Assembly: GCA_002269645.1 (NCBI GenBank)
Contig: NIVC01001098.1
Span: forward strand, 1 to 64,000
Source: Macrostomum lignano
Lineage: Eukaryota
Length of the DNA: 64,000 nt
Direction of reading: 5' to 3'
Part shown: one piece after another, positions 1,339-3,600 of the stretch
Layout of the letters: every line of letters begins with the position of its first letter
How positions within the stretch are numbered: position 1 is the first letter of the stretch
Position numbers and translations under genes: made by a program
Notes under the pieces: generated by a model
Told to the model about the DNA's origin: nothing
Seen by the model: the letters and a program-made list of their open reading frames with translations, nothing else
The model's database searches: none

Positions 1339-1470
1339 ATGGCCTTCAGTAAACCATTATTTCTAGGAAATGCTTTAGATATTCAGTCAGCTATAACAAA
1401 AATACCACCGATCTTCGCCACTGGAAAATACCCAGGAGAACTTCATATTCCAGGGTATTCTTTCGCAGGT
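1339..1470 (+). CDS. PLA2X-integrase fusion gene, exon 1 (44 aa)
   Basis: AAAATG at 1339 opens MAFSKPLFLGNALDIQSAITKIPPIFATGKYPGELHIPGYSFAG, the start of a parvovirus/adintovirus-type PLA2 domain. It joins in frame to PGTNLDKRL at 2366. Confidence 0.9.
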
Positions 1471-2365
1471 TACGTAGTGGCCTGAGTGAGGAAGTAAATG
1501 TCCTTGCTAGTCATAGAACAAGCACTTGTTAATTTTTCTAAAGTAAAAATGGAGCAAACAATTCGAAAAATCCTTCTGAAACCAATTGATAATAAGGTTG
1601 GGCATGATCAAATTCTTCATGATCTTTTCCAAGAAGAGTTAATAATTTCACACAGGATTAAAGTTATTCAAATGAGACTAGGCAGACTATATGAAATATT
1701 AGCAGAAAATTATTTTGGATTCGAGAAGGTAAAAAAGATAGACCTGGTTCACGTTGAGCGAAAGATTGCATTAGAGCTTAAATCTTCTGATAACACGGAC
1801 AATTCATCAAGTCGTGAAAGGAATTATCAGAAACTATTAGACTATAAAAATTCTTATCCCACCTATCAGTTGTATTATGTATGCATCAATAAAACTACAA
1901 AGGAACCTAAGAATATTTTACTAGACAATGGAATCACCCTTATAACAGGAGAATTTGCATTGAAATTTCTTTATAGTGATCAATACAAAAACATTATAAC
2001 CAACATTAAACAAGTGCTTAGTGATTGGCGACACCTTCAAATTGCTGGAACTCCGTCCGAACGAAATTCGAGTACCTCTGGTACGTCAATAACAGCCTCA
2101 AGTACCACTTCAGTTGAGAAATCTTCTGAAGGAACACAGGTAATTCCTTTTCCCAATCGGACTTCGTCCGCGAACCTATGGTTCGATGGTAACAAGCTTG
2201 AGGACATGGTGGAAATCCGCAGCCAAGCTCCTAAGTCTGAACGAAGTTGACAAGGATATGGAGAAGGTTGAGAGACTTAATGGGGGTGGGGCTGGAGGAT
2301 CTGGTCAATCCTGATGAAGCCTTAAGATAAAGTCCAGCCTCTTTCGAAAGATTGAGGAACAACTG
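1471..2365 (+). ncRNA. Group I self-splicing intron, IC1-like (895 nt)
   Basis: The 5' exon ends in U and the intron in G. P1 CAGGU(1466-70)/GCCUG(1480-84) gives a U-G at the splice site. P2.1 GCUAGUCA(1506-13)/UGAUUGGC(2022-29). P3 CACCUUCA(2032-39)/UGGGGGUG(2281-88). P element AAAUUGCUGGAA, Q element AAUCCGCAGC(2214-23), R element GUUGAGAGACU, S element AAGAUAAAGUCC(2324-35). P7 GACUU/AAGUC, P8 GGCU/AGCC, P9 CCUC/GAGG. Confidence 0.95.
1498..2250 (+). CDS. Intron-encoded PD-(D/E)XK nuclease (Eco47II-like), putative homing endonuclease; likely start at 1549
   Basis: Motif IQMRLGRLYE...IDLVHVERKIALELKSSDNTDNSSS resembles the D...(E)xK-NT-N-SS core of Eco47II-family restriction endonucleases (recalled, not searched). 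The ORF body lies in the P2.1 loop. AAAAATG at 1549 matches the start context of the element's other genes. Confidence 0.7.
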   Translation: MSLLVIEQALVNFSKVKMEQTIRKILLKPIDNKVGHDQILHDLFQEELIISHRIKVIQMRLGRLYEILAENYFGFEKVKKIDLVHVERKIALELKSSDNTDNSSSRERNYQKLLDYKNSYPTYQLYYVCINKTTKEPKNILLDNGITLITGEFALKFLYSDQYKNIITNIKQVLSDWRHLQIAGTPSERNSSTSGTSITASSTTSVEKSSEGTQVIPFPNRTSSANLWFDGNKLEDMVEIRSQAPKSERS

Positions 2366-3600
2366 CCGGGTACAAATTTAGACAAAAGACTCAATCCAAT
2401 TACAGACTGGCCTCGGTATGATAGTCTACCAATTAATCCAATTGATTGGACTGCTTACTATTGAAGTATCATGACAAAAGCTATAGAGATGCTGGAAAGA
2501 CGTCTTCAACTCCAGAGGAAGCCTTAGCAAAGAAGCACATTGCTGATGAAAAAATGATAGCTGATTTAGATGCTATTCCAACCAGTGACTTGTCTGTGAA
2601 AGAGAGACTGATTAGAAATCTAGTAAAGCGTATTATCAAGGCTAAAGCTCGGTTTGGATTAGGCATTCATACTCACAACCCCAACAATTGTATAGACTGT
2701 CTAACCATATACGGCAATGGTCTTAGCTATGAAGATGCTTTGAAATTGCATAAAGAATATCGAAAGCCAAGAGTATTTAGAAAAATGATTCACTATGCAA
2801 AAGACACAATTTGGCATGCAGATATCATTATCCTACCACCTGAAAGAGGTTACAAATATGCTCTCACTATCATAAATGGTTTTACACGTTACGCCTGGGC
2901 AGTTCCTTTAAAAACAAAGACGGGAGCGGAAGTTGCAGAAGCTTTCCAAAAAGTATTTAAGGAATCAGGAACACGTTCAGAGAGATTTTGTGTAGATGAA
3001 GGCAAGGAGTTTTATAATCAGCATATGTACAAGCTATACTCGTTTTCAAAAGACAACATTAGAAAGAAAGATGAAAATGGGGAGTCTATTAACAAGATGT
3101 TCTCAATTTATGGTGAGTCTAAGAATGCAATGATTGAGAGGTTCAATCGTACTCTCACAAATAAACTCTGGTTTGAATTTGATCTACAAGGAAACCAGAA
3201 GTGGCTCCACACATTGCCAGCTATTGTTGAAAAATACAACAACACAATCCATTCTGAGATTCTCATAACTCCTTCAGAAGCATCTAAACATCCTGAGCGA
3301 GTACCAAAGCCCTCATTCGAGTATTCAAATGAGAAACCAAACTTTAAAGTAGGTGACAAAGTTCATATCTATAGATATAAGGAGCACTTTGAAAAGGGTC
3401 GAAGAGGATATTGGAAAATTTCAGAAGTGTTTACGATAAAGAAAATAGTTTACTCCAATCCCATAACCTACATTATTGAGGATGAGAATGGAGAAGAAAT
3501 TATTGGATCATTTTACAAATCCCAGCTTCTACCAGCAAATTTTTCAACTAAAAATGAGCGCCTATCGAACAAACTGCAAACGGGCGAAAGGTCAGATTGA
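2366..3600 (+). pseudogene. PLA2X-integrase fusion gene, exon 2 (PLA2 core plus rve DDE integrase), frameshifted by an 8-bp insertion
   Basis: PGTNLDKRLN...PINPIDWTAYY, then insertion TGAAGTAT (2462-2469), then HDKSYRD (PLA2 HDxxY). Integrase motifs follow: WHADI, YKYALTII, VDEGKEF, MIERFNRTL. Confidence 0.9.

Follow-up and report, generated by a model that had tools for sequence, protein, structure and literature searches.

A group I intron with a probable restriction-type nuclease partner, and strong avoidance of GGNCC, in Polinton-like elements integrated in an animal genome

Polinton-like elements integrated in the genome of the animal Macrostomum lignano carry a group I intron in a protein-coding gene. 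The intron is real and well supported, has a probable restriction-enzyme partner and goes together with a very strong avoidance of the five-base word GGNCC across the elements. We describe it from a stretch of 64,000 nucleotides (contig NIVC01001098.1, positions 1 to 64,000; here called the window) and from further copies in the genome (764 Mb). The interrupted gene fuses a phospholipase A2-like (PLA2) domain to an rve integrase. In element family A, to which the window copy belongs, the nuclease gene lies inside the intron. In family B it stands free, directly upstream of the interrupted gene, beside an intron of about 300 nt that has no open reading frame (ORF). We consider it probable that the intron is mobile and carries a restriction-type nuclease with a short site, and that it stands in for a methyltransferase: the enzyme would cut GGNCC, the intron would shield the site, and homing would spread it.

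A covariance-model search with RF00028 matched positions 1958-2356 of the window with 72.7 bits (cut-off 50, E 1.5e-17), and all 28 of the 28 intron candidates scored from the genome lie above the cut-off (72.7-91 bits). The intron boundaries need no reconstruction, because the same genome holds natural intron-less alleles (25, on 23 contigs). Of 14 family-A loci examined, 13 read YSFTG-PGTNL across the exact insertion point and one has a changed codon there. The intron-less frame has 452 codons, which equals the 44 and 408 codons of the two exons, and contains the domains PF08398 (PLA2-like) and PF00665 (rve). The last letter of exon 1 is U, that of the insert is G (2365), and the first codon of exon 2 is the proline of the PLA2 loop.

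The helices P1, P2, P2.1, P3, P4, P5, P5abc, P6, P6a, P7, P8, P9 and P9.0 were placed by hand, which gave 87 pairs (Table 1). Pairing was counted over 14 distinct copies, drawn from 29 of 34 introns; the other five were omitted for want of a P3 anchor. In these copies 95.8% of cells are paired, compared with 38-50% when the strands are slid by one to three columns, a comparison that favours the placed structure because it was derived from the window copy. Nine pairs have changed on both sides (three in P7 and one each in P3, P4, P5a, P5b, P5c and P9), compared with 0-2 in the slid controls; most of these changes represent a single event between families A and B, so that the independent events are few. 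The guanosine-site pair G2274-C2334 is invariant and the U-G pair at the 5' splice site is present in all 14 distinct copies. The terminal G is found in all 27 family-A copies, and in 23 of these 27 the extension of P2.1 forms a perfect helix of at least 8 bp. Compared with shuffled sequences, P5abc folds significantly better (z -5.2); plain folding of the whole core gave no such advantage (z -0.96). Both P2.1 and a P5abc extension with an A-rich bulge are present. We take these to be the defining features of subgroup IC1, on which the assignment of an IC1-like layout depends. The A-rich bulge and a GAAA loop in P5abc presumably also resemble those of the Tetrahymena intron Tth.L1925. We conclude that positions 1471-2365 hold a group I intron whose structure and exact boundaries are established; from this structure, self-splicing is predicted.

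Much of this had been proposed in the initial annotation, which was made from the window alone. It had placed a group I intron at 1471-2365, noted that its removal restores the frame of the PLA2 calcium loop, and described an exon ending in U, an insert ending in G, placeable helices from P1 to P9.0 with one mismatch in P4, and an IC1-like layout. All of these points held. Two of the checks it suggested, a search with RF00028 and a search for family-A alleles with and without the intron, gave a match above the cut-off and alleles of both kinds. Its idea of a mobile ribozyme carried by a Polinton into a nuclear genome proved right as far as the integrated Polinton-like element and the animal genome are concerned; the nuclease, the GGNCC site and its avoidance had been missed.

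It could be argued that the insert is a dead relic, or an intron that is removed by the spliceosome. The window copy has indeed decayed: a pair of P4 is open at 2046, the letter at 2270 is unlike that of all 13 other distinct copies, exon 2 runs into a stop and a retrotransposon sits within the ATPase gene. Moreover, 60 family-B copies end in A and not in the canonical G, and two GT-AG pairs near the intron ends (1474 or 1477 to 2356) would keep the frame. However, compensatory changes are found in P3, P4, P5a, P5b, P5c, P7 and P9. With the GT-AG options the PLA2 loop would be 4-5 residues longer than in the intron-less alleles, and exon 2 is fully open (408 codons) in 10 of 27 intron-plus copies. 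We therefore regard a relic or a spliceosomal intron as very improbable.

Contigs from four sequencing runs, three presumed to be RNA and one presumed to be DNA, were compared with a related intron copy (L003). The natural intron-less allele is present in the presumed DNA run and two others; the exact spliced form of the L003 copy is absent from all four. One contig of run X18 (depth 3.3) joins an exon 1 end of the intron-plus type to a variant exon 2. Such a contig could come from splicing or from a rare allele that lacks the intron, and it speaks neither for nor against splicing.

The exact 5' junction pattern occurs 111 times in the genome (reversed control 0), and the window query has an identical twin on contig C4052; copy counts may take in both haplotypes. 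Wnt genes, which gave 86 matches in this genome and none in 14 control genomes, lie on contigs with a family-A intron (C67) and with family-B introns (C506, C952), which shows that the host is an animal and places the elements in its chromosomes. Family-B introns mostly end in A and keep the G-C pair of P7 (L045-L047, L175, L180 and L182; 60 genome matches), and one copy (L179) ends in G. An A-ending group I intron may occur in Coxiella; our search of the literature for A-ending group I introns returned nothing relevant. Rfam undercounts the family-B introns, because RF00028 at E 0.01 missed three of them and found two others in a smaller search (53 and 62 bits). Taken together, more than 100 ribozyme copies, with at least two core types and A-ending variants, reside in an animal nuclear genome.

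The nuclease gene fills over half of the insert, and its tail translates on through P3-P6. Its product matches PF09553 (RE_Eco47II) with 30.0 bits (cut-off 25.9); the family-B form scores 20.6 bits, which is below the cut-off. The structure model scores 90.8 in the predicted local distance difference test (pLDDT). The best match among solved folds is EcoO109I, both in Foldseek (E 2.3e-4) and in VIA (Z 9.4, root-mean-square deviation 3.5, 158 aligned; next Z 7.1). In Atlas, the Eco47II and EcoO109I clusters scored 0.90 and ranked after unnamed clusters. The domain comprises about 160 residues and matches the family along its whole length, with no additional DNA-binding domain. Its putative catalytic residues are E49, D65, E76 and K78, and none of the four has changed in any of the 18 distinct intact domains recovered (from 25 copies). 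In six pairs with a synonymous divergence (dS) of at least 0.09, the ratio of nonsynonymous to synonymous divergence (dN/dS) is 0.13-0.20; five planned pairs were not part of the computation. The intact nuclease gene is under purifying selection.

A profile search found 325 relatives of the nuclease. Since one of them is fused to a C5-methyltransferase (P0025) and another, in a giant-virus bin, adjoins one (L051), the family includes ordinary restriction-modification enzymes. In 12 of 164 environmental homologues the C-terminal tail is a sense-strand translation of the core of the present intron (reversed control 0), so the pairing of intron and nuclease exists elsewhere. Searches of viral contigs with a single nuclease or PLA2 sequence found nothing, and profile searches found one giant-virus contig. 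A sequence search of the PDB, PHROGs and a viral fold library (where no hit reached E 0.001) gave nothing clear for the nuclease. A type II restriction-modification system has a methyltransferase gene next to its nuclease gene, and none was found here. The genome has 12 PF00145 matches on nine contigs, none of which is among the 78 contigs with a nuclease hit, and the scanned element ORFs, which leave out some far element ends, contain no methyltransferase.

The intron is inserted between the Gly and Pro codons of the PLA2 calcium loop, so that the uninterrupted allele reads GGNCC. This word was chosen from the Pfam family of the nuclease before any counting. It spans the junction in 13 of the 14 intron-less family-A loci, and in 11 of these 13 it is the only one in the gene. 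No GGNCC is present in 34 introns with their junction flanks. The avoidance extends over the entire element: four stretches of 9.5-9.9 kb contain 0, 0, 0 and 1 GGNCC where 10.8, 8.3, 8.4 and 10.1 are expected, and the window element contains none (9.9 expected), when the retrotransposon and its border, with one site at 6505, are excluded. Counts are normal in flanking DNA (18/19.4, 20/17.5 and 9/10.8, seen/expected), in two nuclease-free Polintons of the window (20/22.9 and 19/18.3) and in the nested retrotransposon (21/24.1). Of the 1024 5-mers, exactly four are absent from a pool of 19.6 kb from both families (L191 and L195), and these are the four GGNCC words. The depletion has a p value of 3.7e-9; that of the next most depleted of 64 palindromes is 0.012. 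In the element proteins the dipeptide Gly-Pro does not occur (9.6 expected) and Pro-Gly occurs 12 times. Only 2 of 300 codon shuffles in each family match the observed zero.

This element-wide avoidance of exactly GGNCC is an indirect sign of cleavage and points to a recognition site of 5 bp. EcoO109I cuts RG^GNCCY (PMC3089450; this and the other papers are cited for the accessible parts of their text). A 7-bp RGGNCCY site, prompted by the EcoO109I match and by its lack in the family-A intron-less alleles, was rejected, as GGNCC words outside RGGNCCY are absent too.

The avoidance is equally strong in elements without intron and nuclease (L192, L196), which speaks against the intron nuclease as its cause. 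Because of these copies, an outside enzyme, for instance of a co-infecting giant virus, could be the source of the pressure. The intron protein would then be an ordinary homing endonuclease with a long site centred on GGNCC, as I-Ssp6803I. Known PD-(D/E)xK homing enzymes do read long sites, 17 bp in the Ssp6803I family (PMC3424549), and a long site would spare host DNA. The short domain, matching a restriction family at full length with no DNA-binding domain added, argues against this explanation. So do the nuclease-free Polintons, which lie in the same window and show no avoidance. Furthermore, families A and B share both nuclease and avoidance, and the nuclease-less copies exchange DNA with them. 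An outside enzyme thus appears rather improbable to us.

The preferred reading, in which the intron nuclease itself cuts GGNCC, explains the location of the intron by the nuclease, the GGNCC at the insertion site and the element-wide avoidance of this word. The element lineage would escape its own enzyme by losing GGNCC, and even Gly-Pro dipeptides, except at the conserved Gly-Pro of the PLA2 calcium loop. Here the intron would split the last GGNCC in the DNA, and guanosine-initiated self-splicing would remove the intron from the RNA. In a co-resident intron-less relative the insertion site would be the only cut or nearly so, and repair with the intron-plus copy as template would install the intron. 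Homing endonucleases have long recognition sites of 14-40 bp. Avoidance would lend a 5-bp cutter the specificity of such an enzyme. In family B the same logic would apply to the free-standing nuclease and its ORF-less intron, which would amount to collaborative homing. Because the enzyme would fragment host DNA, it is presumably made in viral replication only. We lean towards seeing here a "restriction-intron" system of an animal-infecting Polinton-like virus, in which a five-base enzyme without a methyltransferase acts on a genome purged of its site, and the intron is the sole protection at the one site that is forced.

The arrangement of the genes resembles that of homing systems. The nuclease ORF occupies a peripheral loop of the intron, and its probable target straddles the insertion point, so that the intron disrupts it. 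Among 19 sampled loci with a free-standing nuclease, an intron occupies the site in 18, and the remaining locus is truncated. None of the 78 nuclease-hit contigs is shared with the 23 contigs of intron-less alleles or the nine of C5-methyltransferases. In a tree of exon 2 (37 of 41 loci; L050, L017, L022 and L027 omitted as short), family-A copies with and without the intron interleave, with six changes, at least four of them forced (approximately unbiased test, p 1.8e-67). Fixed differences between intron-plus and intron-minus copies are confined to positions -6, -4 and -1; markers farther away are common to both, in several combinations. Such interleaving with a short fixed tract fits homing with short co-conversion, and also ordinary recombination. 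In the protein tree, for which P0003 and P0004 were called tailed by eye, the intronic and the free-standing nuclease form sister clades next to the environmental homologues with intron tails. This placement would be compatible with gene movement in either direction. In other family-B copies (L045, L048, L049, L179, L180, L182 and L196:8911-9498) the slot upstream of the host gene holds an HNH/EndoVII-like gene, as it does in both intron-less family-B copies that were read. This gene is perhaps a rival homing enzyme.

Alternatively, the nuclease could cut GGNCC mainly as a viral weapon, degrading host DNA or attacking a helper or competing virus. The intron would then be a passive shield, spread by ordinary recombination and selection. 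Chloroviruses package restriction enzymes that are thought to degrade host chromatin (PMC7019647), and the relatives of the present nuclease that are beside or fused to C5-methyltransferases would suit such a role. The ends of the elements are modular: two near-identical family-A elements carry different terminal replication modules, a prim-pol/D5 helicase in one (L191:7480-9930) and a PolB-like frame whose only Pfam match is EndoVII in the other (L192:7104-9599). Intron-less alleles also persist. On the other hand, a gene that lies inside the intron in family A and adjoins the target gene in family B follows the pattern of homing endonucleases. The same holds for the homologue tails that translate this intron core, and the family-B slot alternates with the HNH/EndoVII-like gene. 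We judge a mainly weapon-like role to be unlikely, if less so than an outside enzyme.

Several further observations weigh against the proposed self-avoidance and homing. Splicing and cleavage are both predictions. The match to EcoO109I comes with 12-14% identity, and GGNCC as the site of Eco47II is our assumption, for which a literature search found no paper. Many nuclease copies are broken, and two near-identical pairs have a dN/dS of about 1, with too few changes to judge. A eukaryotic ribosome would also have to gain access to an intron-internal ORF. A second GGNCC lies inside the gene in 2 of the 14 intron-less loci, another one lies 666-732 bp upstream in 7 of the 14, and at least 19 family-A intron-less alleles persist with an intact site. 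The interleaving in the exon-2 tree could reflect ordinary recombination between elements, and the fixed letters at -1 and -4 are also required by P1.

Other introns share this 5' splice site. One of them, a second type of group I intron (L197 660-980; also L198 and L200-L203; 24 genome matches), has P2, P2.1 and P5abc as in the family-B intron, whereas its P3/P4/P7 core differs and its guide sequence is compensated. It scores 38.8-42.9 bits with RF00028, and its 3' end is not fixed. It is possibly the result of a core swap between intron lineages. Another, at L181 (C1464) and about 700 nt long, has a different P2.1, and the nuclease motif is absent from the 1.1 kb that were read. Among viral contigs, L210, L211, L212, L055, L060 and L125 hold the family-B variant of P7 or more than one related intron core. 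In L210 (4.0 kb) and L212 (2.9 kb) the raw GGNCC count, given without an expected value, is zero. Matches to 16-mers of the guide sequence in viral contigs were dismissed as chance.

Table 1. Positions of the intron, its helices, its nuclease gene and the genes of the surrounding element in the window.
Feature	Position	Strand	Remarks
Exon 1 of the PLA2-like/rve-integrase fusion gene	1339..1470	+	44 codons; last codon encodes the PLA2 calcium-loop Gly
Group I intron, IC1-like layout	1471..2365	+	895 nt; terminal G at 2365
P1 and P2	1466..1505	+	P1 with the splice-site pair U1470-G1480 and the internal guide
P2.1, 5' strand, and 11-bp extension	1506..1530	+	pairs with 2009-2029; closes the loop with the nuclease gene
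Eco47II-family PD-(D/E)xK nuclease ORF	1549..2250	+	in loop L2.1; domain about 1549-2037; another in-frame ATG at 1498
Ribozyme core	2032..2365	+	P3-P9.0; RF00028 match and hand-placed pairs
P3	2032-2039/2281-2288	+	
P4	2043-2048/2216-2221	+	
P5abc	2096-2203	+	
P7	2272-2278/2330-2335	+	G2274-C2334 is the guanosine-site pair
P6/P6a, P8, P9 and P9.0	within core 2032..2365	+	
Exon 2 (remaining PLA2-like domain and rve integrase)	2366..3600	+	frame broken after 32 codons in the window copy
Rest of the family-A Polinton-like element	3482..14100	+	GGNCC-free outside the retrotransposon and its border; further virion genes
Double jelly-roll capsid	4663-5824	+	fragmented
A32-like ATPase	5846-6529	+	broken by a retrotransposon insertion (about 6547-10550)

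The host element shows the hallmarks of a Polinton/Maverick-like element, with an rve integrase, a double jelly-roll capsid, an A32-like ATPase and integrated copies; the window copy is without its replication end. The family-A fragment is flanked by inverted arms (114-326 and 14367-14539; 89 nt, 97% complementary), which bear telomere-type TTAGGG runs. The insertion in its ATPase gene (6547-10550) is the remnant of a retrotransposon without long terminal repeats (non-LTR), with endonuclease and RNase H domains and a GC content of 56%. A different Polinton family is present twice at positions 20400-48100. Its PLA2-like and integrase genes are separate, and it also has a PolB-like and a capsid gene. 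These copies gave no nuclease match, and their GGNCC frequency is normal. The long low-complexity repeat region at 51000-64000, with open frames on both strands, is probably satellite DNA.

If the enzyme is indeed specific for five bases and the intron does act as a shield, the present case would approach a new kind of system. The intron would then be obligatory for carriers of the nuclease, and a restriction enzyme would become a homing endonuclease while its recognition site stays as short as before. This would be a direct route from the one to the other via site avoidance and not via a longer site, and its free-standing and intron-encoded stages would be found side by side in one genome. 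The carrier may be protected by the intron, which may also spread to relatives that lack it. Such a system would also imply that these animal Polinton-like elements once behaved as viruses, replicating and co-infecting with a nuclease that was active.

With type II restriction-modification systems such as Eco47II, Sau96I, EcoO109I and those of chloroviruses, the present system has the fold, the Pfam family and, presumably, a palindromic GGNCC core in common; for Sau96I we take the site to be GGNCC. It differs in that no methyltransferase partner was found and protection is apparently provided by site loss and the intron. In the literature searched, which mostly did not extend to subscription journals, we found, among the entries listed, neither an intron enzyme of the Eco47II type nor a system in which an intron acts as a shield. 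Group I introns in Polinton-like viruses of protists have already been published, so that the initial annotation, which knew of no described case and called for a literature check, was pre-empted in part. In the accessible text of PMC12220804, RF00028 introns of 309-376 bp are reported from only a few protist groups, upstream of the capsid gene and with no annotated nuclease. They are alike in being group I introns in a gene of an integrated Polinton-like virus. The present intron differs by its animal host, the PLA2-integrase gene and the nuclease inside or beside it. The animal host is the part that we did not find in print. The literature searched, including the accessible parts of PMC11296320 and 10.1101/2023.08.22.554363, with the same limited reach into subscription journals, yielded among the entries listed no group I intron in an animal Polinton, and in the accessible main text of a paper on coral polintoviruses the word "intron" is absent (PMC11131425).

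Group I introns of animals are described as "mostly" mitochondrial and of subgroup IB4, in placozoans, corals and sponges (PMC11835236, a 2025 database). In the accessible text of reviews, nuclear group I introns are placed only in rRNA genes of eukaryotic microbes: one states that they are exclusive to rRNA genes (PMC3679873), and another assigns His-Cys box enzymes to them (PMC3984707). Here they are abundant in the chromosomes of one animal and carried by integrated viruses. With nuclear IC1 introns, for example Tetrahymena Tth.L1925 (PMC3679873), the present intron shares a complex P4-P5-P6 scaffold, the G-C pair of P7 and the U-G pair of P1. It differs from them by its place in a viral protein gene in an animal, by the lack of a long P9 extension and by the PD-(D/E)xK gene in L2.1. 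Chloroviruses and giant viruses also have self-splicing introns in protein genes, some with endonuclease ORFs (PMC7019647, PMC10675990); unlike the present case, their hosts are algae or protists. The nearest core matches that we found are in viral contigs of IMG/VR (about 72-80% over the P6-P7 region), and none of 122 viral intron-core loci had an Eco47II-like nuclease. PD-(D/E)xK genes have been reported in spliceosomal introns of mirusviruses (PMC12768974).

The use of a restriction fold by a group I intron has a precedent in I-Ssp6803I (PMC3424549). That enzyme is prokaryotic, belongs to PF11645 and reads a long site, whereas the present one belongs to PF09553 and shows signs of a 5-bp site. 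Collaborative homing has been raised, as a hypothesis only, for replicase genes (10.64898/2026.10.13.758929). In phages, collaborative homing combines a free-standing nuclease and an ORF-less intron at one target, and a composite form also exists (PMC3984707). The elements described here share this arrangement, with both states in one genome, and differ from the phage case in being eukaryotic and in using a restriction-type enzyme.

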